64,000 nt of DNA. It comes from Ignavibacteria bacterium UBA2373 (GTDB lineage Bacteria; Bacteroidota; Ignavibacteria; Kapaibacteriales; UBA961). The notes beneath the pieces were generated by a model. It worked only from the letters and a program-made list of their open reading frames with translations, searched no databases and had not been told where the DNA came from. This document shows, one piece after another, positions 43,480-58,629 of this stretch (position 1 is its first letter; each line of letters begins with the position of its first letter). The position numbers were made by a program, and so were the translations under genes. The DNA lies in the NCBI GenBank assembly GCA_002344005.1, contig DDTD01000098.1, positions 18,432-82,431 on the forward strand. Direction: 5' to 3'.

Positions 43480-44151
43480 ATGAATGATTTTGCCGATAAT
43501 GAAAAAGAACTGATACTCTATTTGCAAAAAGGCGAATCAGCAGCATTGGAATATATTTATGACCATTATAGTGCTGCCCTTTATGGCATCATTGTAAAAA
43601 TTCTCAAAGGAAATAAAATTATTTCCGAAGATGTACTGCAAGAAACATTCATAAAAATTTGGACAAATAGAATCAAATACGATAGCTCAAAAGCTACGCT
43701 GTTTACGTGGATGCTGAATATTGCAAGAAATACTGCCATAGATACATTACGAAGTTCGGATTTTAATAGTCATTCAGTGAACCGTGTTTCCATAGATTCC
43801 GTACATATTGATGAGGAATTACATTCACCATCACCACAGTATGCTGAGGATATTATTCTAAAAGAGATATTGAATCAATTACCGCCGGAGCAAATACAAA
43901 TCATAGAACTTATGTATTATCAAGGATATACACAGACAGAAATAGCGACGCAGTATTCTATTCCGCTTGGCACGGTAAAATCACGTGCTCGATTGGCAAT
44001 TGAAACTCTAAGGAAAATACTTATCCATGACAGTAACATACTTTCCGGAACGTCTCCGCAATCATTTGCAGCGAAACAAACTCTCACTGCAATTATTGCA
44101 GTATTAACATCAGAAATAGTTGATATACCCACCTTGCAATCCACTCTTTAA
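43480..44151 (+). CDS. ECF-subfamily RNA polymerase sigma-70 factor
   Basis: Region 2 (YDHYSAALYGIIVKIL...ETFIKIW) and region 4 HTH (YYQGYTQTEIATQYSIPLGTVKSRARLAIETLRK). Confidence 0.8.
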   Translation: MNDFADNEKELILYLQKGESAALEYIYDHYSAALYGIIVKILKGNKIISEDVLQETFIKIWTNRIKYDSSKATLFTWMLNIARNTAIDTLRSSDFNSHSVNRVSIDSVHIDEELHSPSPQYAEDIILKEILNQLPPEQIQIIELMYYQGYTQTEIATQYSIPLGTVKSRARLAIETLRKILIHDSNILSGTSPQSFAAKQTLTAIIAVLTSEIVDIPTLQSTL

Positions 44152-44205
44152 ACAATAGTGGTATGCAAAGGTGTTCTCTTTCATAGAAAACATAATGACA
44201 TAACT

Positions 44206-45012
44206 ATGAATAGTACAATACATCCGGAAAATGAAGAACATAATCTCGAAGATGCTGCTGTCTATGCGCTTGGCGGAGCAGACATTGGCACGGAACAAGA
44301 GCAAATAAAAAAACATATCTCAGATGCCGAAGCTGTACTCGAAGCATTAGCGTCTGCACATGCTGTCAATCCTTCTCCATCATTAAGACCCCGATTACTT
44401 AATAAAATAATCGGCGGGAAACATTCATTTTCACAGATAATAACATTACAATCAAAAATAAAAAAATATCAACGTTACTCTATTGCCGCAAGTGTCATGT
44501 TCGCAATAACCGCTTCCGCAACACTCTATTACAAACAGTTGCATGATAATTCTAATGCAGCATTACACCTTGTCAAAGAAGAATTAGAAAAAACGAAAGA
44601 ATCGAGCTATGTGCTTGCAACAAAAGCCGATGTTTTAGACCAACGCATCCAATTAGTCACAAATCCTGATATTGTGGAAATATCTATGAAATCACCGAAG
44701 ACAGTGATAAGCCAACCATTACTTCGTACGTCAGTCTATTGGGATACAAAAGAAAATGCAGTGTTTTTGGAAGTCCAATCATTACCGGAAAACAATGATT
44801 CTACGGATTATCAACTGTGGGCAATTTCAGAAGGCAAGCCAAAAGATTTGGGGGTATTTCATTTCAAAAAATCACCATTTATTTTCAAAATGAAAAATAC
44901 CGATTCGGCAGATGCTTTTGCAATTACACTTGAAGAAAAAGGCGGAAAACCTTCGCCAACATTAGAAAATTTAACGGTACTCGGTACAGTATCATCACAA
45001 AATGGTGAATAA
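44206..45012 (+). CDS. Anti-sigma factor (RskA-like; N-terminal anti-sigma domain, single TM, periplasmic domain)
   Basis: Immediately downstream of the ECF sigma gene. AAVYALGGADIGTEQEQIKKHIS anti-sigma N-domain, TM segment YSIAASVMFAITASATLYY, C-terminal RskA-like domain (WAISEGKPKDLGVFHF...FAITLEEKGG). Confidence 0.6.
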   Translation: MNSTIHPENEEHNLEDAAVYALGGADIGTEQEQIKKHISDAEAVLEALASAHAVNPSPSLRPRLLNKIIGGKHSFSQIITLQSKIKKYQRYSIAASVMFAITASATLYYKQLHDNSNAALHLVKEELEKTKESSYVLATKADVLDQRIQLVTNPDIVEISMKSPKTVISQPLLRTSVYWDTKENAVFLEVQSLPENNDSTDYQLWAISEGKPKDLGVFHFKKSPFIFKMKNTDSADAFAITLEEKGGKPSPTLENLTVLGTVSSQNGE

Positions 45013-45724: not shown

Positions 45725-46240
45725 CTATTGAAATACTCCATGAATGGTAGCCGATACCTTCCGATAAAAAGAAAGCTGGTCGGCATTTACCGGACAACTG
45801 CCTGCTGTTGTGGGTTGAACTATATATCTTTGAGCATACGTACTTTGAGAATAAAGCCCTGAGTTTTTAACCAAACGATAAACACATTCACTTACCCCCT
45901 CATCACTGCTCATATATTGATGCAATAAGTTTTCTCTCTTTCGATCATAGACATACACCAAAATATTATCGCGTGTGTTCATATATACTGCAATAATGCC
46001 GGGTAAATTTTTTACAAAGGACTGAATGGCTTGTTGTTCTTGTGCTGTAAGATTTCCGTTGAAATCAATCCTTGCTAACTGATGTGTTGTATTGACCGAT
46101 GTCTCATCAGGCAAAGTCACAAAGTAAATATGAACGCACAGTGTGATACATAATCCCAAGACAATGGTCGAAAGTGCAATAATGTAATGTTTCGCCTTAA
46201 TCTTGGGTGCCGCTTTTGGGTGTTGTTGCAAAGATTCCAT
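45725..46240 (-). CDS. Hypothetical membrane-anchored protein
   Basis: 171 aa with a single N-terminal TM helix (YIIALSTIVLGLCITLCVHIYFV). No recognisable domain. Confidence 0.3.
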   Translation of the reverse strand: MESLQQHPKAAPKIKAKHYIIALSTIVLGLCITLCVHIYFVTLPDETSVNTTHQLARIDFNGNLTAQEQQAIQSFVKNLPGIIAVYMNTRDNILVYVYDRKRENLLHQYMSSDEGVSECVYRLVKNSGLYSQSTYAQRYIVQPTTAGSCPVNADQLSFYRKVSATIHGVFQ

Positions 46241-46600
46241 AGTTCTTATAGACTTGTGAATGAAATGTGTTCAATGCCTATACATACGCATGATGCTCAT
46301 AATCAGATCAGTAAAGAATGTATGTTTCCATTCTTAGCATACAATTTTTACATTTTTGACTACCAAACATCAAGTGAGGGAACGAAGAAAAGGCGGATTT
46401 TTCTTATTCGAGAACAAGGTATATGGCCTACCGGAAAGACAGAACTCTTGTAGGACTAAACAAAACATGGCGACACATCCTGCAAAAAAAGTGCACTTTC
46501 CCCATGTATTATCAAAACATTATATTAGACACACACACTTAATATTGGCATAACGCTAAGGTAATAATAGCTCGGTAATTTTGCGACCAAGTTCAAACTA

Positions 46601-49507
46601 ATGAAAGCTGCAAAATTGAAAATCCTTCTTACTCTTTGTTTCGGCATTGCTTTATGTGTTACCACCTCAATAACAGCCCAAGAAAATTCCGCTACTGTAC
46701 AAGGTAAAGTAACCGACGGCTCTACGGGTGATATTATGCGTAGTGTCACCGTTGAATTATTAACCAAAGAAAAACAAAGTACCAAAAAAGGTGCCTATTC
46801 GGATGTAACCGGAAAATACACAATAAAGAAAGTACAGCAAGGCGTATATTCTTTACGCTTCCGTTATGTGGGCTTTGAAAGCAAACTTATAGAAAATGTT
46901 GAAGTAGCTGCGGGCAAAACTGTGACAGTAAATGTGACATTATCGCCCGAAACAAAAAAATCTACCGAAGTAGTTGTCACTGCACGTGCCAATAAAGAAT
47001 CAAAAGAAGCAATTTTAGCACAAAGAAAAAATTCTGCCCAAGTAAGCGATGGCGTGAGCAAAGAAGAAATATCGCGTCTTCCCGATGCCGATGCAGGTCA
47101 AGCACTTAAGCGAGTTTCCGGTGTGACATTAGTGGGCGATAAATTTATTTATGTGCGTGGTTCAAGCGACCGTTACAGCAATACGACATTAAATGGCTCA
47201 ACCCTGACTTCGACCGAACCGGACAAACGTTCTTTCGATTTTGGTATGTTCCCGTCGGAATTTTTACAACAAGCGAATATTACCAAGTCATTTACGCCCG
47301 ATTTACCCGGTAATTTTGCCGGCGGCTTAGTGCAATTACAAACTATAGATTTTCCCGATGGATTTTCCGTAAAAGCATCGCTTTCCACATCGGGAAATAA
47401 TAATACACAAATAGGCGATAATATATTCAGCTCCTATCAAGGCGGCTCAGATGATTGGTTAGCACGCGATGATGGCACGAGATCAATGTCCTCAGCCACT
47501 CCCGGCAGCCGTGAAGATATCAATCGTTTATTATTGAATGCTCGTCGGCAAGATGCGCAAGGAGATTCTGCGCGCACTACCTTACAAAATTTTGCACGCG
47601 GATTTAATCAGAATGTCTGGACAAATAATAATTTTTCGGCTAATCCCAATACATCATTTGCGCTTTCATTTAGTAATTTATATGATGTTTTCGACAATGA
47701 TTTAGGTGTGATTGCATCGGTTAATTATGGTAATTCTTATGCCATTAATTCAATTGTACGCAGCCCCATTCTTGCCGACAAAGAATATCGTCAAGAAAAT
47801 GCGGGTTCTGTGTCCACACGTTCCGTGAATTATGGCGGTATGGCAAATATTGCCTATAAATTAGGAGGTCACAGCTCACTCAGTTTTAAAAATGTGTTTA
47901 ATCGTTCCGCCGATGATGAAACCACACTTTTGCAGGGCAGAGATATTCCGCAAGGTATTGATATTCGCCCATCGAGCTGGCAATTTGTGCAAAAAGAATT
48001 ATTTTCCACACAAGTCAATGGCGAACATACTGTACCGTTTGATAGTACGGCAATTATCTCCTCATTGCTTTTTGATTGGCGATTAGGATATTCACAATCC
48101 CTGCGCGATGAGCCGGATTTCCGTCGTTTGCGTTATTCGCGCCAATCGGTTGATTCGACATTACCGTTTACTGCCGATATACAACCCACACCGCAAGGTG
48201 ATGGCACGCTCGCCGGACGTTTTTATTCTTCATTAAATGATTTTGCCAGAAATGCTGCATTTAATATCGCATTACCTGTGTATCGTGATATGAAATTTAA
48301 AACTGGTTTTCTCACAGAAAATAAAAATCGTTATTTTTCTGCACGCTCATTTACAATTAATCAACCGACAAGCGGTGCTGATGTTGATATAGATTTTTCT
48401 GATACACCGGACAGTTTATTCCGAGCAGAAAATTTCCGTCAGGGTGGTTTGGGAATGTCCGAAGACTCTAAGCGCAGCGATTCTTATATTGCAGGTGAAG
48501 AATTATATGCCGGATATTTTATGATTGATGCACCTTTTTCTGTTGCGGGCGAGCAATTTCGGATTATCGGCGGCGCAAGAGTAGAAGATGCCGTTCAATC
48601 ACTTAATTCATTCGACACAGAAGGAAACCCCATCAATATTACATATGCAACAACAGATTGGCTGCCATCTTTTAATCTTATTTACAAAGCAACGGATGCG
48701 ATGAATTTACGTATGTCGGCAACACGCACATTAACCCGCCCTAATTTACGAGAATTTGCACCTTTTGCATTTTATGATTTCCAATCATTATTCGTTGTAC
48801 GCGGCAATCCGAATTTAGAGCGCACCTTAATTTCCAATTATGATATACGCTATGAATATTTCCCTCAGCCGGGCGAAGTCTTTTCTGTCAGTGTATTTTA
48901 TAAAAACTTTATTAATCCCATCGAAGAAACTATTGATCAAGTATCAAGTGAATATATACGCACATTTTCCAATGGACAAAGTGTTGATTCAACAGGTAAA
49001 AAAATAGCTGATGGCAATGCTTTTAATTATGGAGTTGAATTTGAAGCACGCAAATCCCTTGCATTTTTAGGTGATTATTTTCGCAATTTCGGCATTAATG
49101 CCAATGTATCTCTAATTCAATCAGAAATTACGGTATTGCAAGGCAGAACCGAAGATAAACGCAGTATATGGGGACAATCTCCGTATTCATTAAATATCGG
49201 ATTATTTTTTACGGAACCCGACTTAGGCACATCCGTCAATATTGGCTATAATCGCTATGGTCGCCGTATTGTTCAAGTTGGCTTGCGCGGTGCATTTGCA
49301 TTCGACGATCCTCATGTGTATGAGCAACCGCGAGATGTTATTGATATTTCCATTATTCAGCCATTATTAGACAATGCCTTTGAAGTTAAATTAGTTGCGC
49401 GCGACATTCTTAATCAAGAATTATTATGGCAACAAGGCGGCAAAACCATTGCTTCTAATTTGCGCGGCACAACTTTCAGTATAGGCATGAGCTACCGTTT
49501 TCGTTAA
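46601..49507 (+). CDS. TonB-dependent receptor with N-terminal carboxypeptidase-regulatory-like domain
   Basis: Signal peptide. CarbopepD_reg-like beta-sandwich (ATVQGKVTDGSTGDIMRSVTVELL...GKYTIKKVQQGVYSLRFRYVGFES). Plug (DAGQALKRVSGVTLVGDKFIYVRGS). 22-strand barrel ending ...TTFSIGMSYRFR. 968 aa. Confidence 0.8.
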   Translation: MKAAKLKILLTLCFGIALCVTTSITAQENSATVQGKVTDGSTGDIMRSVTVELLTKEKQSTKKGAYSDVTGKYTIKKVQQGVYSLRFRYVGFESKLIENVEVAAGKTVTVNVTLSPETKKSTEVVVTARANKESKEAILAQRKNSAQVSDGVSKEEISRLPDADAGQALKRVSGVTLVGDKFIYVRGSSDRYSNTTLNGSTLTSTEPDKRSFDFGMFPSEFLQQANITKSFTPDLPGNFAGGLVQLQTIDFPDGFSVKASLSTSGNNNTQIGDNIFSSYQGGSDDWLARDDGTRSMSSATPGSREDINRLLLNARRQDAQGDSARTTLQNFARGFNQNVWTNNNFSANPNTSFALSFSNLYDVFDNDLGVIASVNYGNSYAINSIVRSPILADKEYRQENAGSVSTRSVNYGGMANIAYKLGGHSSLSFKNVFNRSADDETTLLQGRDIPQGIDIRPSSWQFVQKELFSTQVNGEHTVPFDSTAIISSLLFDWRLGYSQSLRDEPDFRRLRYSRQSVDSTLPFTADIQPTPQGDGTLAGRFYSSLNDFARNAAFNIALPVYRDMKFKTGFLTENKNRYFSARSFTINQPTSGADVDIDFSDTPDSLFRAENFRQGGLGMSEDSKRSDSYIAGEELYAGYFMIDAPFSVAGEQFRIIGGARVEDAVQSLNSFDTEGNPINITYATTDWLPSFNLIYKATDAMNLRMSATRTLTRPNLREFAPFAFYDFQSLFVVRGNPNLERTLISNYDIRYEYFPQPGEVFSVSVFYKNFINPIEETIDQVSSEYIRTFSNGQSVDSTGKKIADGNAFNYGVEFEARKSLAFLGDYFRNFGINANVSLIQSEITVLQGRTEDKRSIWGQSPYSLNIGLFFTEPDLGTSVNIGYNRYGRRIVQVGLRGAFAFDDPHVYEQPRDVIDISIIQPLLDNAFEVKLVARDILNQELLWQQGGKTIASNLRGTTFSIGMSYRFR

Positions 49508-49563
49508 GTAACTGTAAAAAAAACATATCTATTATTTATACACAATATCTCTAAGGAAATTGT

Positions 49564-52500
49564 ATGAAATTATTTACTGCCGTGACAACCGCATTGCTGT
49601 TCTGGGGAGCAATGTCGAGTGTTCAGTCACAAACTGTGCAGCTTTTATCACCGGGTGGTTCACCCAATGAGAGTTATCGTGCAGGTAATTCCGTTGATTT
49701 GGTGTATCAAACATCACCCTCCACAGTGACACCTCGCCCGCGCTATCGCTTTGAATTCAGCACATCTCCGAACGGACCTTGGACTTCAATCTCAGGTGCA
49801 ACCAATGTGGTGGACAGTAATGCAAGCGGCACTGTTCGCGCAGGTCGTTTTATTGGTGCTTTTCGCATTCCGGCAACGCCAACAAATACGGGTTATGTTC
49901 GCCAAGTATTATTAAGCGATCCGTCAAAAACAAGTATCAGTCCTTTTCCCTTTAAAATCGAACAACCGCAAACAACACGCATAGACGAATTTTTACAAGG
50001 TGCTGTCGGTGCGGGCGAAACACGTACATTGACACGCGATAAAGTCTATGGAATTAAAGGATATTTCCACGTTGATAATGGCGGTACTTTAGTTATTGAA
50101 CCGGGAACTATTGTCGTTGGCGATCAAGTGGGTGTTAATAGTGCACTTGTCATCAATCGTGGCGGTAAAATTATAGCCGATGGCAGAGCCGATGCACCTA
50201 TTGTTCTTACAAGCAGTGCGCCTCCGGGCTTACGTGCTCCGGGTGATTGGGGTGGATTACTCATTTTCGGTAAAGCAGTTATTAATAATCCGGGCGGTGA
50301 AGCAGCTATGGAAGGCGGTGTTGCCGATCCGAATAATAAATCACGTTGGTATTATGGCGGTAATGATGATAATGATAATAGCGGAATATTGCGCTATGTG
50401 CGTATTGAATTCGGCGGTATTGCTTTGCAACCGAATCAAGAATTAAACGGACTTACATTAGGTGCTGTGGGACGTGGTACTATTATGGAAAAAGTACAGG
50501 TCAGCTATGCTAATGATGATGCTTATGAATGGTTCGGCGGCACGGTTAATGGCAAATATCTTATCTCAACTTCCTGCCTTGATGATGATTTTGATGCGGA
50601 TAATGGTTGGAGCGGCAAAGTACAATATGCCGTAGCTCAACGTTCAACCAATCGCGCCGACCAATCCACAAGTCAAGCATTTGAAACCGATAATGATGCA
50701 AGCGGCTCATTCCGAATTCCACGCACATCGGGTATATTTTCTAATGTGACAGTTATCGGTCCATTACAAGATGTTTCCGCCACACCGAATCCTCGATTCG
50801 GTGCAGCGGCGCAAATCCGACGCGCTTCTCTCTTATCCATCTATAATTCAATATTTCTCGGCTGGCCCCGCGGTATCGAAATTGCGCAAACGCCAACGAT
50901 GAATGCTGCATATAATGATACAGTTCAAGTGCGTAATTGTGCATGGTATGGCATAAAAACATCATGGCTTAATCTTGCGGGCGGTACTCCCCCATCGGGA
51001 ATGACAACATCGTGGATAAGCACAGGACGCTTCAATAATGTGAATGATGCATCGAATAATCCGTCTGCGGCATTACTCGAAAATCCTTTTTCGGATATAG
51101 CATTCAGTGCCGTTCCATTAGCAGGTTCTCCTGTATTGTCAGGTGCTTCCTTTGTTCGTGACGGTGTTCCGGCAATTGATGATTCATTTTTTGATAAAGT
51201 TTCTTTCCGTGGTGCATTCGGTAGTGATATGCGCTGGGATTATGGATGGGCAAATTATGATCCTGTCAATGCTGCCTATATCGCAGGCGCACCAACAGTT
51301 GCCGGAGCTTCATTACGTTTGACGGCACCTTCAACTGGACGCGTTTATGTGGCAGGTACAACAGCAACTATCGAATGGGACACCACCGGTACACGTGGTT
51401 TACGCTATAAATTCCAAACCGCTACTTCTATAGACGGTCCTTGGACAGATATTCAAGGTGCGGAGAGTATCACCGATGAAGGCAGTACACGCGGTCGCAT
51501 CGTCAATGGATATAAAGTGCCGTCCACACCATCAACCAATGCATATATTCGCATGGTTGCATTACGCAATGATGGTAGTATCAATACAGATGCATCCAGT
51601 ATTCTTGGACCTTTAACTATTGTTTCTTATACACTTACCTCACCCAAAGGCGGCGAAGTTTATCGTGCGGGATCACGTCAATTATTAGCATGGAAACAAG
51701 AACCACAAGGCGAATTAATCGGCACAGTCAAATTACGCTTCGAGTATGCAACATCTAATTCGGGACCTTGGACACCAATTCCGGGTGCAGAAATGGTCGA
51801 AGACAATGATGATAAAGTATTACAAGGCGGCTTAGTATTACCTCTTACCCAAACTGAAACTGCTTTTGTCAGAATGACCGTGCTTAATGAAGATGGCAGC
51901 CCTACAAGTATAAGTTCTACGAATGCACAGCCCTTCAAAGTTATCGGTATTCGCTTACTTTCTCCGGCAAGTGCTGCATCGCTCAAAGGCGGCAGCAAAG
52001 TGGACATTATGTGGGATACCACAGCAACAGCAGGATCACGCTTCCGTTTCCAATATCGCTTGAATGATACCGAACAATGGAATGATATCCAAGGGGCAAC
52101 GAATGTCTTAGACGCAGGTGCAAATCGTGGTAAAATTGTAGGCGGTTTTACCGTGCCAAATGTAGCCACAACAAACGGTTATGTTCGCATGACAGCACTT
52201 GCTGAAAATGGCAATCCTATTGAGGCTCTTTCCTCACAAAATGAACAACCATTTACTATTACAGTTGATAAACCCGTTGATGGCATCGTACGCATTATCA
52301 CTCCGGGTGCAGCAGCGGGCGAACGCTATCGTCCGGGACGCTCTTTAGATATTACCTATGATACAGTAGGTGGTTACCGTCGTCGCTATCGTTTTGAGTA
52401 TGGCACATCCGCCAATGGTCCTTGGACTGTCATTAAAGGTCTTGAAAATATTATTGACAGTAATAGAAGCAGCACACTTCGTCGCGGACGTATTACCGGA

Positions 52501-54219
52501 GGTTTCCTCGTGCCTGACCAGCTAACAAAAACAGCATATTTACGCATGGTATTATTATCGGATGAATCCAAAGTTGATATTACCGATAATCCTATCGAAA
52601 TATTCCGCCCGACAGCAAGTAAAGTGGATTCCGTTTTAAGCGGTTCTATCAATAAACGTGTATTTCTCTCTAACACTAAAATATATGGTTTACGCGGTTA
52701 TGTACACGTTGACAATGGCGGTGTTTTAGTCATTCAACCGGGTACAATAATTCTTGGTGATTCAGTAGGAAAAAATTGCGCACTTGTTGTGAATCGCGGT
52801 GGTAAAATTATCGCAAAAGGTACAGCAAAATTACCGATAGTATTTTCAAGTCTTGCAGCTCCGGGACAACGAGAATCCGGTGATTGGGGTGGATTACTAA
52901 TTTTCGGTAAAGCAGTTATTAATAATCCGGGCGGCGAAGCAGCTATGGAAGGTGGCGTTGCCGATCCGAATAATAAATCACGCTGGTATTATGGCGGTAA
53001 TGATGACAATGACAGCAGCGGTATTCTTGAATATGTCCGTATTGAATTTGCAGGACTTGCATTACAACCCAATCAAGAATTAAATGGCTTAACGATGGGT
53101 GGTGTTGGTCGCAAAACAGTAATGAATAATATTCAAATCAGCTATGCCAATGATGATTCATTCGAATGGTTCGGCGGTACCGTTAATGCAAAAAATATTA
53201 TTTCTATCGGTGCATTAGATGATGATTTTGATGGTGATAATGGCTGGAGTGGAAAAGTACAATTCGCTATAGCACAACGTCACCCTAACAGAGCAGATCA
53301 ATCCACAAGTCAGGCAATGGAAATGGATAATGATGCGAGCGGCTCAACACGCAAACCACTCACCTCCCCTATTTTTTCCAATATGACTGTAATCGGTCCT
53401 ATCAATGATACTTCCAAAGTGCCGAATCCTCGTTATGGTGCTGCCATACAAATACGTCGCAATGCCAGAACATCTGTTTTCAATTCAGCAATTCTCGGCT
53501 GGGGACGCGGAATGGAAATTGCACAAACTACAACGATGAATGCCGCAAAAAATGATTCCTTACAATTCCGCAATAATGCAATGTTCGGTATTCGTTCTAC
53601 TCTCTTAAATTTGGCAGGTGGCACTCCGCCGACAGGCATGACAACAGAATGGATTAATACTCCTGCATTTAATAATACAATGGATAAATCATCACCTCAA
53701 AAAGCAGGTTTACAAAATCCTTTCGAGATTGTTGAATTTAATCCTGCTGCAATGGAAAGTTCACCATTACTTAGCGGAGCAAATTTCACAAATAGTGGTA
53801 TTATTGCAATTGATGATGCCTATTTTGAAAAAGTACAATTCCGCGGTGCAATGGGATTACAACGCTGGGATGCAGAATGGACAGAATATGATCCTATTAA
53901 TGCTGAATATAAAGCACAACAAGCTCCGGTTTCTGTGAATGAAAACAGCATAAATACTTCTGATATTGTGGCATCGGTTTATCCGAATCCCACTCATGAT
54001 AAATGTATTGTGAAATATCAAACACGCAAAGACGGAATGGTAAAAGCACAATTTGTCAATGCTATGGGCGACATTGTTTCTACATTCTTTGCCGAGCAAC
54101 AACAAGCGGGATTTTATCAATTCAATATTAATGTTCAGGATATGCCAACCGGATTATATTTTGTTCGTATTGAGTCTGATAATAACACAATGACTATACC
54201 TGTATCAGTGTATAAATAA
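49564..54219 (+). CDS. Giant (1551 aa) T9SS-secreted protein with an internal ~870-aa duplication (two beta-helix-like modules plus multiple Ig/Fn3-like modules)
   Basis: Signal peptide. Two copies of the segment beginning HVDNGGTLVIEPGTIVVGD...GDWGGLLIFGKAVINNPGGEAAMEGGVADPNNKSRWYYGGNDDND (aa ~170-540 and ~1045-1420). Repeated ~100-aa modules SP..G..YRAG...D..Y.T...NGPWT.I.GA.N..D. C-terminal T9SS tail ...GLYFVRIESDNNTMTIPVSVYK. Confidence 0.6.
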   Translation: MKLFTAVTTALLFWGAMSSVQSQTVQLLSPGGSPNESYRAGNSVDLVYQTSPSTVTPRPRYRFEFSTSPNGPWTSISGATNVVDSNASGTVRAGRFIGAFRIPATPTNTGYVRQVLLSDPSKTSISPFPFKIEQPQTTRIDEFLQGAVGAGETRTLTRDKVYGIKGYFHVDNGGTLVIEPGTIVVGDQVGVNSALVINRGGKIIADGRADAPIVLTSSAPPGLRAPGDWGGLLIFGKAVINNPGGEAAMEGGVADPNNKSRWYYGGNDDNDNSGILRYVRIEFGGIALQPNQELNGLTLGAVGRGTIMEKVQVSYANDDAYEWFGGTVNGKYLISTSCLDDDFDADNGWSGKVQYAVAQRSTNRADQSTSQAFETDNDASGSFRIPRTSGIFSNVTVIGPLQDVSATPNPRFGAAAQIRRASLLSIYNSIFLGWPRGIEIAQTPTMNAAYNDTVQVRNCAWYGIKTSWLNLAGGTPPSGMTTSWISTGRFNNVNDASNNPSAALLENPFSDIAFSAVPLAGSPVLSGASFVRDGVPAIDDSFFDKVSFRGAFGSDMRWDYGWANYDPVNAAYIAGAPTVAGASLRLTAPSTGRVYVAGTTATIEWDTTGTRGLRYKFQTATSIDGPWTDIQGAESITDEGSTRGRIVNGYKVPSTPSTNAYIRMVALRNDGSINTDASSILGPLTIVSYTLTSPKGGEVYRAGSRQLLAWKQEPQGELIGTVKLRFEYATSNSGPWTPIPGAEMVEDNDDKVLQGGLVLPLTQTETAFVRMTVLNEDGSPTSISSTNAQPFKVIGIRLLSPASAASLKGGSKVDIMWDTTATAGSRFRFQYRLNDTEQWNDIQGATNVLDAGANRGKIVGGFTVPNVATTNGYVRMTALAENGNPIEALSSQNEQPFTITVDKPVDGIVRIITPGAAAGERYRPGRSLDITYDTVGGYRRRYRFEYGTSANGPWTVIKGLENIIDSNRSSTLRRGRITGGFLVPDQLTKTAYLRMVLLSDESKVDITDNPIEIFRPTASKVDSVLSGSINKRVFLSNTKIYGLRGYVHVDNGGVLVIQPGTIILGDSVGKNCALVVNRGGKIIAKGTAKLPIVFSSLAAPGQRESGDWGGLLIFGKAVINNPGGEAAMEGGVADPNNKSRWYYGGNDDNDSSGILEYVRIEFAGLALQPNQELNGLTMGGVGRKTVMNNIQISYANDDSFEWFGGTVNAKNIISIGALDDDFDGDNGWSGKVQFAIAQRHPNRADQSTSQAMEMDNDASGSTRKPLTSPIFSNMTVIGPINDTSKVPNPRYGAAIQIRRNARTSVFNSAILGWGRGMEIAQTTTMNAAKNDSLQFRNNAMFGIRSTLLNLAGGTPPTGMTTEWINTPAFNNTMDKSSPQKAGLQNPFEIVEFNPAAMESSPLLSGANFTNSGIIAIDDAYFEKVQFRGAMGLQRWDAEWTEYDPINAEYKAQQAPVSVNENSINTSDIVASVYPNPTHDKCIVKYQTRKDGMVKAQFVNAMGDIVSTFFAEQQQAGFYQFNINVQDMPTGLYFVRIESDNNTMTIPVSVYK

Positions 54220-54248
54220 TTCCTTTTCCTCCTACCCCACACGGAAAA

Positions 54249-54287
54249 GCGGGCGTATTTCTTCGGAAATGCGCCCATTTTTTTTTT
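54249..54287 (+). terminator. Rho-independent terminator after the 1551-aa T9SS gene
   Basis: GCGGGCG-tatttcttcggaaat-GCGCCC hairpin followed by T10. Confidence 0.7.
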
Positions 54288-54420
54288 GCAAAACAGCGCT
54301 ATTTGGATTCATTCTGAATAGTTACAATTTAATAATGAATCAATAATATATCCATAAAATTCCGGTAATCTCCAAACGGTAATTTTGTGAATATTATTAA
54401 CATCTTTATTTAGAGGAAAA

Positions 54421-56283
54421 ATGAAAAAATCTCTACTCGTCGGATTATTATCCGTTTCGTTAATTTCGCAAGCAGCAGGCGCAGAATTTCCTACAAAAGT
54501 TCAGCCGAAATCAATGATTCCTTATATAACACATAGCGTTGTTGTGCCACCATCACCATTAAAATATCAAGTGTTGTTTATTGGTGGTGTGCATGATGTA
54601 CAAACTACACCCACATACGGTAAACCCGCAGGCGCAACCAAAGCCAAACAATGGCATGACTTTATCGGCTTTACAAAAGCTGATGCAACAAAAGGCGAAA
54701 CAGGACTTGGTTGGATTTCTGTGAATCATGAAATGGTTCAAGCCAATGATAATATCGGTGATGGCGGCGGAATGACCGTGTTCAAAGTTGCAAAAAGCGG
54801 TGACTCAATTATTGTTGTTGATCAAACACTTTCTGATGGTCGTACAGGAAAATATTTTAATGTTGATTTTGTGAATACAGTTGGCGAAACAGGTATGAAT
54901 TGCGGTGGTATTCAAAGCCCTGATGGTCGTATCTGGACAGCAGAAGAATGGTTCCGCAGTGCAAATAATGATGGCACAGGCGATGATATTTTCCAAAAAG
55001 GCACAGGTGTGCGTGATACGTCTGATTTTACGATTGGCACGACAACTCCCAATGGTTTCCCGGGATATAATGGCACAAAAATCAAAAAATACCAAAATTT
55101 TAACTGGATGGTAGAAATTGACCCTCGCACTGCCAAAGCAGTTCGCAAACAATATAATTGGGGTCGTCAAGGATTTGAAGGCGGCGCGGTATTGCCTGAT
55201 AATAAAACAGTTATTCTCGGTGAAGATGGTGATGCAGGAGCTTCATTATTAACAAAATTTGTTGCCGATACACCGGGTGATTTTACAAAAGGAAAAACAT
55301 ATATATTCAAACAAAAAGATAATTCATTCCAAGGCGATTGGATTGAAGTACCACAGGACATCAATACGATGCTCGATATTCATACATGGGCTAAACAAAA
55401 TAATGCTACCGGCTTTACACGTATAGAATGGGTTACATTTGACAAAAAAACTAATACTATTTATATGACCGAAACAGGTTCCGATGCACCGGGTTCGGCA
55501 ATCAAGAAAAATATGGCAGCAGGTTTCGGTATCCCAAAACATTACAAAGACATGGCAACAGCTTCAAAAACAACTGTTGACAGCAGCACATTCAATGATT
55601 ATTATGGCAGAGTATTGTCATTAGATTTAACAACAAATGAAGTTAAATCATACATTGAAGGCGGTCCAAAATTGGACGAAAAAAAGGCTTATACAGAATA
55701 TCCTGATAAACATTTAACTAACCCTGACGGATTAACTATTTTAGAAGTAAAAAACAAAAGATACCTAATTATCTGCGAAGATCTTAACGGTACATCATTT
55801 GGACGTGTTCCTTTCGGCATGAGCAATCGCAGTTGTGAAATTTATGCTCTTGATTTGGATGCTGAACCGAAAATCGAAAATCTTACTCGTTTAGCAATCG
55901 TACCCTATGGTGCAGAGGTTACCGGTGCATGCGCAATTGATAATGGCAATACATTATTATTCAATTCTCAGCACCCAAGTTCATACAATCAATACCCTTA
56001 TAACAATTCTTTGACTGTGGCAATCTCCGGTTTCGATAAATTAGTAACGGGTATTAAAGAATTAGATGGTACTTCTTCCATTAAAGGAATAAAAGTCTAT
56101 CCTAATCCGGCATCACGCGAATTACGTTTCGATAATACCATGGACGCTGCTTTGTATAATAATGAAGGCAGTAGAGTACGTGTTGTCCGTAATGCTAATA
56201 CTATGGACATTTCCGATCTTAATGCAGGTGTCTATTTCTTAATGAACAATGACGGCGATACACAAAAAGTAATTATTGAATAA
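54421..56283 (+). CDS. PhoX-like (DUF839) beta-propeller phosphatase-family protein with T9SS C-terminal domain
   Basis: Signal peptide. GWISVNHEM, LTNPDGLTIL and TLLFNSQHPS resemble conserved PhoX segments (NPDN..., LFVNIQHPGE). C-terminal ...GIKVYPNPASRELRF...GVYFLMNNDGDTQKVIIE is a T9SS CTD. Confidence 0.5.
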   Translation: MKKSLLVGLLSVSLISQAAGAEFPTKVQPKSMIPYITHSVVVPPSPLKYQVLFIGGVHDVQTTPTYGKPAGATKAKQWHDFIGFTKADATKGETGLGWISVNHEMVQANDNIGDGGGMTVFKVAKSGDSIIVVDQTLSDGRTGKYFNVDFVNTVGETGMNCGGIQSPDGRIWTAEEWFRSANNDGTGDDIFQKGTGVRDTSDFTIGTTTPNGFPGYNGTKIKKYQNFNWMVEIDPRTAKAVRKQYNWGRQGFEGGAVLPDNKTVILGEDGDAGASLLTKFVADTPGDFTKGKTYIFKQKDNSFQGDWIEVPQDINTMLDIHTWAKQNNATGFTRIEWVTFDKKTNTIYMTETGSDAPGSAIKKNMAAGFGIPKHYKDMATASKTTVDSSTFNDYYGRVLSLDLTTNEVKSYIEGGPKLDEKKAYTEYPDKHLTNPDGLTILEVKNKRYLIICEDLNGTSFGRVPFGMSNRSCEIYALDLDAEPKIENLTRLAIVPYGAEVTGACAIDNGNTLLFNSQHPSSYNQYPYNNSLTVAISGFDKLVTGIKELDGTSSIKGIKVYPNPASRELRFDNTMDAALYNNEGSRVRVVRNANTMDISDLNAGVYFLMNNDGDTQKVIIE

Positions 56284-56303
56284 ATAACACTAATATTCGT
56301 AAA

Positions 56304-56338
56304 AACCGGTGATGTACGTGCATCATCGGTTTTTTTTT
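56304..56338 (+). terminator. Rho-independent terminator after the PhoX-like gene
   Basis: AACCGGTGATG-tacgtg-CATCATCGGTT hairpin followed by T8. Confidence 0.7.
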
Positions 56339-56351
56339 ATATGAGAGACCT

Positions 56352-58265
56352 ATGAAAAAAATTAGTATAATCGGTATTTTTCTTCTTTTTGGATTTACCG
56401 TCATCACCCCTACGTCACAGTTTACCATGACTTCATCGCATGTCTTGAGAAATTCGCTATCTATTGTAGAATCTTCTCTACAAAGACTCAAAGATATTGT
56501 CAAGACTCAAAAAGAAGACAGCATAAAAGCGTTATATCATATCAGCAGAAACAATTACAAACAGTGTGAATTTATCATTGAATATTATGATGGGGGTTTA
56601 GTATCATCAATAATCAATGCCGCTCCCCTTCCAAAATTAAATCCATCATCGGCACAAACTGACATATTGGAACCTCATGGTTTTCAGGTATTGGATGAAA
56701 TAATATACGCAGACGATCAATCACTTGAACAACGTTCCGATGCCATCATCAAAGAAATTGATTATATACTCCATTCTCTTCATGATTTTTCGCTGCTTGC
56801 ACAAGGCATACATATAGAAAAACGCCATCTATTAGAGTCAATACAATTAGGACTATTAAGGGTTGTTTCATTAGGTATTACGGGTTTTGATACACCGGGA
56901 TCGGATAATGCCATTGGGGAAACATCATTTGTACTTCAGTCTATGGCACAGTATATATCTCTACTCCAACCACTTTCTACTCAAGAAAAAAAATCACTGC
57001 AACAGACCTTAACGCTCTGCAAACAAGCATCACAATATTGTAAAAAAAATAAGAATTTCGATACGTTCGACAGGGCATCTTTTATTCGTGAATACGCGGA
57101 ACCATTATTTAAAAAAATTCAAGCTCTCTACACTGATTTTTCTATTGAATATTATGATGAAACAACAACAAGACCATCGTCAATTAATTTTCGCAGCCCA
57201 TCACTTTTTTCCACGACACTTTTTTCTGCTTCATACTATACCCGACAAATGCCGCAAGATATAAATGATACACGAAAATACTTAGGTAAACTCTTATTTT
57301 TTGATCCCATACTTTCACGAAACAGTGAACGCTCATGTGCTTCATGTCATCAACCGGAAAAAGCATTTACGGATGGTTTACCAACAAGTATGGCATTCAA
57401 TAAACAAGGTAATATCTTACGCAATGCCCCTACGCTAATCAATGCAATCTATGCCGGTCGCTTATTTTATGACTTACGTGCCCATTCATTTGAAGATCAA
57501 GTGCAACATGTGGTGACTGATGACAATGAGTTTCATTCAGATTTTTCAACCATTATTTCTAAGATGGAATCTTCGACAGAATACCGAGAATTATTTTCAA
57601 AAGCATTTCCCGACATAAAACATAATAATATTTCGCCATACACAATAAGCGCAGCTTTGGGTGCATATCAAATGACTCTTGTGTCGTTCAACTCAGATTT
57701 TGACAAATATATCCGTTCTGAAAAAAAATCAGTCTCTCGGGAAGTAAAAAACGGCTTTAATCTTTTTATGGGAAAAGCAGCTTGTGGTACATGTCATTTT
57801 GCTCCAACATTTGCAGGCTTGGTACCGCCTCGGTTTACTGAGAGTGAGTCTGAAATATTAGGTATTCTTCAGCAATTTGACACTCTCTCACCTAAACTTG
57901 ACACAGATGCAGGCAGATATGCGGGTCATGCCAAAGACCAAGTTGCACTGTACAAAAGATCATTCAAAACAATGACTGTACGTAACAGTGGATTAACCGC
58001 ACCATATTTTCATAATGGGAAATTTAAGACTCTTGAGCAAGTTCTCGAATTTTATGACCACGGAGGTGGAGCAGGATTAGGGTTAGATGTCCCCTATCAA
58101 ACGCTGCCCTCCGACAAACTTCATTTAACGAAAAATGAAAAACGTGATATTATTGCATTTCTTCACTCATTAACGGATACAACAGGTTTGACAAATAAAC
58201 CGAGTAAACTTCCTGCCATAGAATCGCAGAAAGCATCAGGCAGAACTATTGGTGGTTTGTATTAA
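56352..58265 (+). CDS. Di-haem cytochrome-c peroxidase-family protein with ~300-aa N-terminal helical extension
   Basis: Two CxxCH haem sites (CASCHQPEKAFTDG and CGTCHFAPTFAG) and YFHNGKFKTLEQVLEFYDHGGG typical of bacterial CCP/MauG-family. N-terminal 300 aa are helical, contain an H-x-x-x-x-x-E stretch (EPHGFQVLDEI) and are not part of canonical CCPs. Confidence 0.7.
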   Translation: MKKISIIGIFLLFGFTVITPTSQFTMTSSHVLRNSLSIVESSLQRLKDIVKTQKEDSIKALYHISRNNYKQCEFIIEYYDGGLVSSIINAAPLPKLNPSSAQTDILEPHGFQVLDEIIYADDQSLEQRSDAIIKEIDYILHSLHDFSLLAQGIHIEKRHLLESIQLGLLRVVSLGITGFDTPGSDNAIGETSFVLQSMAQYISLLQPLSTQEKKSLQQTLTLCKQASQYCKKNKNFDTFDRASFIREYAEPLFKKIQALYTDFSIEYYDETTTRPSSINFRSPSLFSTTLFSASYYTRQMPQDINDTRKYLGKLLFFDPILSRNSERSCASCHQPEKAFTDGLPTSMAFNKQGNILRNAPTLINAIYAGRLFYDLRAHSFEDQVQHVVTDDNEFHSDFSTIISKMESSTEYRELFSKAFPDIKHNNISPYTISAALGAYQMTLVSFNSDFDKYIRSEKKSVSREVKNGFNLFMGKAACGTCHFAPTFAGLVPPRFTESESEILGILQQFDTLSPKLDTDAGRYAGHAKDQVALYKRSFKTMTVRNSGLTAPYFHNGKFKTLEQVLEFYDHGGGAGLGLDVPYQTLPSDKLHLTKNEKRDIIAFLHSLTDTTGLTNKPSKLPAIESQKASGRTIGGLY

Positions 58266-58629
58266 ATGATTGAACTATCCATTCTTTTTTGTATTCCACC
58301 ATTTTTTGAATAAGGTCATAAGGCATCGGTTTATTCAAGGGAAATTGCACCGAGCCCTTACCTTGTTTATAGAGTGATAATTCTTCTGCAAAATATTCAT
58401 GAGCTGAAGGTGTGGCATAAAGACCGATATGTGTTTTAAATGCAGCAAAATATAGTAATGGTTTACCCCGATACGTATAAGCCGGCATCGAATATGCAAT
58501 GCTTTCTTTCGCATCGGGTACAGCCATCAAAACAATACTTCGGATATTTAGTAAATATTGTTGGATTATTTCCGAATACTGTGATATATATTCAGCGACA
58601 TTCTCTGCTTTTTTATTTGTTTTTTTCAT
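58246..58629 (-). CDS. DUF1801 (YdhG-like) protein
   Basis: 127 aa. AENVAEYISQYSEIIQQYLLNIRSIVLMAVPDAKESIAYSMPAYTYRGKPLLYFAAFKTHIGLY matches the YdhG/DUF1801 pattern. Confidence 0.6.
   Translation of the reverse strand: MKKTNKKAENVAEYISQYSEIIQQYLLNIRSIVLMAVPDAKESIAYSMPAYTYRGKPLLYFAAFKTHIGLYATPSAHEYFAEELSLYKQGKGSVQFPLNKPMPYDLIQKMVEYKKEWIVQSFNTNHQ

Follow-up and report, generated by a model that had tools for sequence, protein, structure and literature searches.

The receptor and beta-helix genes and the repeated units

The 64,000 nt stretch of DNA analysed here (the window) is part of contig DDTD01000098.1 of Ignavibacteria bacterium UBA2373 (GenBank assembly GCA_002344005.1, positions 18,432 to 82,431 of the forward strand). 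A single open reading frame on its + strand (49564..54219) spans a whole repeat region and encodes a protein of 1551 amino acids (aa). We describe this gene, the two repeated units within it, the near-identical core that the units share, and the pairing of the gene with a TonB-dependent receptor gene directly upstream. The receptor gene (46601..49507, + strand) encodes 968 aa with CarboxypepD_reg, Plug and barrel regions, as Pfam and NCBIfam matches show. Its stop codon precedes the beta-helix gene by 56 nt, and a consensus scan found no terminator-like site between the two. The same type of scan found a strong intrinsic-terminator-like hairpin at 54251..54285 (+ strand; an 11 bp stem with six G–C pairs, followed by a T run), 32 nt past the stop codon of the beta-helix gene, which would end a two-gene transcription unit of receptor and beta-helix genes.

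From its sequence, the 1551-aa protein is predicted to be a type A cargo of the T9SS (type IX secretion system). An N-terminal signal peptide, MKLFTAVTTALLFWGAMSSVQSQ (49564..49632, + strand, as are all of the features of this gene given below), was recognised by eye in the translation, and the C-terminus is a T9SS type A sorting domain (C-terminal domain, CTD; aa 1472–1551, 53977..54216), which matches PF18962 with 44.1 bits (cut-off 27) and TIGR04183 with 32.7 bits (cut-off 23) over aa 1472–1544. Between these ends the order is an immunoglobulin (Ig)-like domain (Ig1), beta-helix module A, three Ig-like domains (Ig2–Ig4), a further Ig-like domain (Ig5) and beta-helix module B. Ig1 (aa 25–132, 49636..49959) is all-beta in the AlphaFold2 (AF2) model and has weak matches to the Kre9_KNH and V-set domains; it is 50% identical to Ig5 (aa 906–1013, 52279..52602) and 38–43% identical to Ig2–Ig4, and the other Ig pairs are 38–44% identical. 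Module A (aa 135–575, 49966..51288) belongs to Pfam family PF28492, Beta_helix_4, and module B (aa 1014–1452, 52603..53919) is 66% identical to it in protein sequence. The spacer domains Ig2–Ig4 (aa ~579–898, 51298..52257, with a period of ~309–345 nt) lie outside the duplication and account for the ~1 kb of coding sequence between units A and B. Within module A, the core (aa 227–271, 50242..50376) comprises a GDWGG motif, the strand LLIF and a loop of ~38 residues ending at NDDND; the core of module B (aa 1106–1150, 52879..53013) is identical to it in protein sequence.

The two copies are direct repeats that lie 2637 nt apart throughout, an in-frame distance of 879 codons. By global protein alignment, the repeated unit runs from aa ~28 to ~570 and again from ~907 to ~1450 (~1.63 kb), each unit consisting of one all-beta Ig-like domain of ~110 aa (~50% identity between the units) and one module of ~430 aa. 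The duplication of ~2.6 kb described in the first-pass annotation is therefore real as a duplication, although 2.6 kb is its period and the unit itself is ~1.63 kb; likewise, the segments given there as collinear (aa ~170–540 and ~1045–1420) are indeed collinear, but the unit is larger and takes in the Ig-like domain. The flank identity of ~75% holds for the best ungapped blocks (73–77%) and not for the modules as a whole, which are 68% identical at the DNA level (398 differences in 1254 nt). The near-identical 130 bp core is also present, with six differences rather than the ~5 first counted: between 50246..50375 (the coordinates originally given for core A) and 52883..53012, 6 of 130 nt differ, all of them silent and in third positions, and the longest perfect runs are 35, 26, 23 and 20 nt. 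This divergence is significantly below that of the flanks (32% overall). When the codon columns were shuffled, none of 20 000 shuffles gave a 130 nt window with six or fewer differences (minimum 15, mean 27.8), which confirms a conserved core as opposed to uniform divergence along the repeat.

The DNA of the gene is 100% identical in six contigs that were assembled independently, from several samples, so the near-identity of the cores is not an assembly artefact. Four of the contigs (L003–L006, short and from different assemblies) start 690–1100 nt upstream, inside the receptor gene, and end 47–270 nt downstream; that the breaks recur there suggests that the sequence at these places varies between strains or is repeated.

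Age of the duplication and constraint on the core

Three orthologues were used as controls: P0122 (89% identity, 1549 aa, locus L010), P0125 (78%, 1551 aa, locus L011) and P0126 (79%, 1550 aa, locus L012), which are referred to below as O89, O78 and O79, the copies A and B of the 1551-aa gene in the window being WA and WB. All three share the architecture of the gene in the window, and their A and B copies are already distinct. Outside the core, the proportion of silent differences (pS) between A and B is ~0.65, and identical residues are encoded by identical codons in a fraction of 0.53, compared with 0.46 expected; codon sharing is thus close to the expectation from codon usage and the silent sites are saturated. 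In the flanks of the core, A–A and B–B distances are 23–56 nt and A–B distances are 55–88 nt, and trees from outside the core group the four A copies and the four B copies with 100% bootstrap support each. The non-core A–B distance of 0.36 equals the distance from A to the outgroup, the units of proteins from other organisms (0.37). Saturated silent sites together with an A/B split in every orthologue show that these are old paralogues rather than the products of a recent duplication: the duplication is much older than the four lineages, and since then the layout has remained stable. This is ordinary repeat architecture, neither recent nor unstable, and the duplication itself is routine, as surface proteins with repeated modules are common and the family has members with one to four units.

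Within the gene, the core stands out strongly: pS is 0.27 compared with 0.65 elsewhere, the proportion of nonsynonymous differences (pN) is 0.009 compared with 0.26, and a scan of silent sites gave P = 0.008 at the core. The orthologue controls changed the answer on what this identity means. We do not take the within-gene dip in silent divergence as clear evidence of conversion, since the controls trace much of it to composition and constraint. The core comparisons used eight copies (A and B of four genes) over 138 nt, giving 28 pairs. All 28 distances fall between 9 and 29 nt, and the A/B partition of the flanks is lost in the core. Where all eight copies encode the same amino acid, the silent mismatch in the core is 0.20–0.47 for all pairs, compared with ~0.5 elsewhere, and pS between orthologues also falls at both cores. 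In protein sequence, the A and B cores of the three orthologues are 0.84–0.87 identical, compared with 0.55–0.77 in the flanks. In other proteins with two to four units, too, the core usually ranks among the stretches best conserved from unit to unit.

Composition contributes as well. The core is rich in codons for Asn, Asp, Glu, Lys, Tyr and Gly, with many biased two-fold codons, and its expected fraction of identical codons is 0.52, compared with 0.46 in the rest of the module, and the cores of an independent four-unit gene (P0123, locus L015) share ~0.61 identical codons at saturation. No stretch of the module evolves more slowly between the paralogous units of this clade than the core. Because divergence in the core is low in orthologous pairs too, most of the excess identity is due to purifying selection on a constrained loop and to codon make-up, and is not peculiar to this gene. 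Elsewhere in the family, the units of P0183, P0128 and P0124 are 90–100% identical in protein sequence over ~195 residues around the core and ~70–85% identical further on, which would fit either recent unit duplications or strong concerted evolution in those proteins.

Probable homogenisation of the core in this lineage

A small remainder of the identity is not covered by this baseline. The WA–WB core distance of 9 nt is the smallest of the 28, the corresponding distances within the orthologues being 20, 25 and 28, and the two cores in the window have no amino-acid differences in 45 residues, compared with six or seven in the orthologues. Two residues are diagnostic for the copies. Residue 239 is Val (GTT or GTA) in the A copies and Thr (ACC or ACA) in the B copies of the orthologues, and is Val (GTT) in WB; residue 260 is Ser (TCA) in the A copies of W and O89 and Ala (GCA or GCC) in those of O78 and O79, is Thr (ACA) in the B copies of the orthologues and is Ser (TCA) in WB. 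WB thus carries the exact codons of WA at both positions, which amounts to three nucleotide changes towards the paralogue within 22 codons, while O89B, O78B and O79B keep the other state; the core of WB is phylogenetically incongruent in this respect. Over codons 228–244, the two W copies share synonymous codons (GGT GGA TTA CT[C/A] ATT TTC) that the two O89 copies do not. The silent mismatch between the W cores is 6 of 30, compared with a mean of 0.39 between A and B copies of different species (binomial P = 0.022), and 35 of 42 codons are identical, compared with the ~0.61 baseline. The drop of pN at the core has no counterpart when A or B is compared with the single-module homologues P0004 and P0005 (0.12–0.28). 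These observations point to a short patch of gene conversion from A to B, probably in this lineage; it would cover about codons 227–260 (~100 bp) and would have occurred after the split from O89.

Several observations weigh against such a patch. A GENECONV-like permutation test of the longest run at silent polymorphic sites gave P = 0.18 for the W pair, and the silent mismatch between O89A and O89B is 7 of 30, nearly the value for W. Silent differences occur at codons 245, 251 and 252, inside the proposed tract, and WB keeps the B-typical silent site 261.3, so any tract must be old, patchy or short. In all four species, homoplasies with the A state in copy B occur throughout the unit, at ~5–10% of the diagnostic sites. 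Finally, the region was singled out in the first-pass annotation because it is near-identical, and the tests on the core therefore carry a selection bias. Of the two causes proposed there, gene conversion or strong purifying selection, selection is the main one and conversion survives only as a probable small patch with modest support. In general terms, this is a worked example in which a near-identical core in an old repeat is mostly constraint and codon make-up, and only a small remainder needs conversion. The case resembles the concerted evolution or gene conversion that occurs between tandem domain repeats of bacterial surface proteins in having a short tract of low divergence, transferred paralogue states and a lost A/B signal. 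It differs from such cases in that the tract is also the most constrained part of the protein, so that selection and conversion are confounded, and in that the standard run test on silent sites is not significant.

The reading that we prefer, and which we hold to be rather probable as a whole, is of a T9SS-delivered surface protein with old Ig-plus-beta-helix units, a constrained loop, a conversion patch and the receptor as a partner. Of its elements, the anatomy, the fold, the age of the duplication, the conservation of the core across the clade and the linkage to the receptor gene are shown, while the conversion event and the function are inferred. The nearest competitor dispenses with conversion: purifying selection and codon composition would suffice, and Val239 and Ser260 would have arisen in WB by parallel substitution under a shared constraint on the loop. 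That units share a conserved core, both in the orthologues and in unrelated proteins with several units, speaks for this, as do the low silent divergence of the core in every pair, orthologous pairs included, the outcome of the run test and the homoplasies throughout the unit. However, the change from Thr (ACx) to Val (GTT) needs two substitutions and lands on the exact codon of the paralogue; together with ACA to TCA, three changes within 22 codons all go towards copy A, the WA–WB distance is 9 where the others are 15–29, and the synonymous codons of 228–244 are common to the W copies and not to the O89 copies. We consider selection alone to be a somewhat unlikely account. The opposite account, in which the core has been homogenised repeatedly across the clade and conversion rather than selection is the main cause of the missing A/B split, seems improbable to us. 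The core trees give bootstrap values of only 6% for the four A copies and 24% for the four B copies, compared with 100% for each outside the core, and the mean A–B distance in the core is 0.14, near the A–A value of 0.12, with 0.25 from A to the outgroup (compared with the non-core values of 0.36 and 0.37 given above). Clade-specific states also occur in both copies, for example Asn258 (PNNK, compared with PNDK or ANDK in relatives), and the two units of P0132 share core residues specific to that protein (EAIMEGGFD). Nevertheless, monophyly of the eight A and B copies has 32% bootstrap support outside the core, so the shared states may be ancestral, with faster divergence elsewhere; the A–B core distances of O78 and O79 (25 and 28) exceed the orthologous distances of 20–21, as expected without conversion; and the core has only 45 residues and gives weak trees. 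An older homogenisation of the core in the ancestor of the clade is possible, and it is inseparable from simple constraint.

Two further accounts appear much less credible. The first is that the duplication is recent, or that an active hot-spot of recombination alters the module number by crossover in the identical runs of 20–35 nt. Perfect runs of up to 35 nt do occur, and the offset is divisible by three, so that crossing over within the core would leave an in-frame protein of 1551 − 879 = 672 aa, near the usual single-module size of ~670–680 aa; the existence of proteins with one to four units also means that the unit number has changed in evolution. Set against this are the saturated silent sites outside the core, the lengths of 1549–1551 aa kept by orthologues at 78–89% identity and the identical two-module gene in six assemblies, and we regard this account as very improbable. 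A search of metagenome contigs for deletion junctions (A-left/B-right, or B-left with either right flank) found none, but the scan also missed the parental gene and is hence uninformative. The suggestion that the repeats are a substrate for recombination accordingly stands in so far as a single-module product is conceivable, and there is no sign of current instability. Least credible is that the conservation of the core at the nucleotide level reflects a non-coding element, such as a structured RNA, a promoter inside the gene or some other embedded signal, or an artefact of assembly, which we treat as close to negligible. The silent divergence of the core is somewhat low even between orthologues, which speaks for this account, but promoter-like matches in the region are no commoner than in shuffled sequence and the same silent baseline is found in the unrelated four-unit gene, which fits codon make-up. 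A search of 46000..58500 gave no Rfam match at E ≤ 1, and an embedded RNA in this interval was rejected on that ground. An artefact is contradicted by the six identical independent assemblies, in which the two cores still differ at six sites.

Fold, family and pairing with the receptor

Precomputed annotation of the exact 1551-aa protein lists PF28492 (Beta_helix_4, at E ≤ 1e-5) and PF18962, and PF28492 is also listed in all close homologues. Our local Pfam and NCBIfam scans gave no match for the module even at E ≤ 10, the Pfam copy used being older than PF28492. The module was at first thought to belong to no assignable family: the Pfam family can now be given, while a specific enzyme family still cannot. 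The guess of a pectate-lyase-like beta-helix is borne out by the AF2 model, in which the module is predicted to be a right-handed parallel beta-helix of this kind, with coils of three strands stacked on one another. The core in the model comprises GDWGG, the strand LLIF and an irregular but well ordered loop of ~38 residues (predicted local distance difference test, pLDDT, 92–98 over the block). Among 71 family members, 12 of the 45 core residues are invariant, and more invariant acidic residues lie on successive turns (NDDxxEWFGG, DDDFDxDNG and ExDND). The invariant positions of the module include D228, N241, E250, D271, D318/D319, E322, D340–346, E374 and D376 (numbered as in the protein, which is 23 above the numbering of the model).

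Sequence searches with module A and with a 71-sequence profile found no relative of the beta-helix among solved structures; the structure database returned only weak matches, V-set-like ones to the Ig-like domain and others to T9SS CTDs. A Foldseek search of the Protein Data Bank (PDB) returned nothing beyond weak matches of a generic kind to beta-helix and Ig folds; structural matches of the module are at ~10% identity. There was no Pfam, NCBIfam or PDB sequence match to polysaccharide lyases PL1, PL3, PL6 or PL9 or to glycoside hydrolase family GH28 even at E ≤ 10, and none at the sequence level to the older Pfam beta-helix models. The fold is that of beta-helix carbohydrate-active enzymes and binders (phage tailspikes, AlgE/AlgG epimerases, PL6/PL9/PL1 lyases, GH28 and NosD), but the identity to these is only 6–14%. 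The catalytic and metal-binding residues of the known beta-helix families could not be aligned with the module and no activity can therefore be transferred.

More than 7,890 relatives were retrieved, most of them ~670 aa long and consisting of an Ig-like domain, a beta-helix and a T9SS CTD, and the number of units per protein across the family is one to four. The proteins of Ignavibacteriota, Kapaibacteria and Bacteroidota have the same module and likewise a receptor gene upstream; the protein studied here differs from the usual ones in its two units and three Ig-like spacers, a layout that, among the proteins retrieved, is common only to three close orthologues. These orthologues, at 78–89% identity, and the protein itself were listed with the full-length query, whereas a search with module A alone listed neither, and negative results of such searches call for caution. 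A literature search with the Pfam name and with combinations of beta-helix, T9SS and TonB found no characterised member. Representative genomes of at least 594 species, belonging to Bacteroidota, Ignavibacteriota, Kapaibacteria and Balneolaceae, were found to encode relatives.

Of the 62 representative-genome loci whose upstream sequence extends to 3 kb or more, 54 have a homologous receptor gene directly upstream on the same strand, and the pairing is present in all nine metagenome contexts examined. The pair spans Bacteroidota, Ignavibacteriota, Kapaibacteria and Balneolaceae, and its cultured hosts include Pedobacter, Hymenobacter, Chryseobacterium, Mucilaginibacter and Parabacteroides. A literature search found no paper on the pairing of this receptor with Beta_helix_4. 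Apart from the receptor, the neighbours of beta-helix loci are not conserved. The contig of O78 (L011, 1..10656) carries two receptor/beta-helix cassettes in tandem, the first with a single-module protein of 695 aa and the second with the two-module protein of 1551 aa; the first could be a donor or a relative for module shuffling.

The homologues in Pedobacter and Parabacteroides (L070 5854..7278 and L037 5872..7239) are single-module lipoproteins of 455–474 aa. They have an acidic stretch after the lipidated Cys (CGDDDD, CSKSPVDDD) in place of the Ig-like domain and the T9SS CTD, so that the module uses two different export routes to the surface, depending on the phylum.

The pairing suggests a role. 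The beta-helix gene would be co-transcribed with the upstream transporter gene, and the T9SS would export its product to the cell surface, where two Ig-plus-beta-helix units spaced by three Ig-like domains would be displayed. There, as a probable surface partner of the TonB-dependent transporter, the protein may capture or pre-process its substrate. A glycan-active or metal-dependent binding site would be favoured by the fold and by the large number of invariant acidic residues, and two modules on Ig-like stalks would add reach or avidity, or would provide two related specificities that share one loop. Against this role, the similarity to known folds is of a generic kind (~10% identity), catalytic residues could not be matched and there is no solved relative.

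Partner proteins of TonB-dependent transporters of this kind are known. SusD has a tetratricopeptide repeat-like fold and BtuG has a beta-propeller fold. The module is homologous to neither: no Pfam matches to SusD families (PF07980, PF12771 and PF14322) or to BtuG were found, and the fold differs. What the Beta_helix_4 proteins have in common with SusD/SusC and BtuG/BtuB (PMC10404256) is a partner gene directly downstream of the transporter gene, a surface location and a pairing kept across many genomes. The likeness, between unrelated folds, is one of gene order and location only.

We tentatively propose, as a possibility that we would not yet call probable, that Beta_helix_4 proteins are a widespread class of surface partners for one lineage of TonB-dependent transporters in the Fibrobacteres–Chlorobi–Bacteroidetes (FCB) group. 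The GDWGG loop would bind the ligand or dock the transporter, and tandem loops would be kept alike by selection, and by conversion seeded in the identical runs, because every unit must serve the same transporter and substrate. Delivery would be as a lipoprotein in Bacteroidota and by the T9SS in Ignavibacteriota and Kapaibacteria. The more promising lead from this locus is the receptor/beta-helix cassette: a large family with neither a characterised member nor a solved relative nearly always has its gene immediately downstream of a particular TonB-dependent receptor gene, a pairing that can be tested in tractable organisms and could reveal a new accessory protein for nutrient uptake.

Downstream of the beta-helix gene, at 54421..58265, the window contains a PhoX-like phosphatase (620 aa) with a T9SS sorting domain of its own and a 637-aa MbnH/MauG-like di-heme peroxidase with an N-terminal extension of ~300 aa that has no family match. 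Both of these neighbours are common only to the locus of O89. We considered an operon for phosphate scavenging that includes the genes for the PhoX-like phosphatase and the di-heme peroxidase, but set this reading aside, as these neighbours are found only with O89, the terminator-like hairpin lies between and the neighbours of distant relatives are unrelated. A Metallophos/PhoD-like gene lies near the 78–79% orthologues, and a link to phosphorus is possible. About 1.6 kb upstream of the receptor gene (43480..45012), and also in L010, there is an extracytoplasmic function (ECF) sigma factor gene together with an RskA-type anti-sigma gene, and this pair may regulate the cassette.

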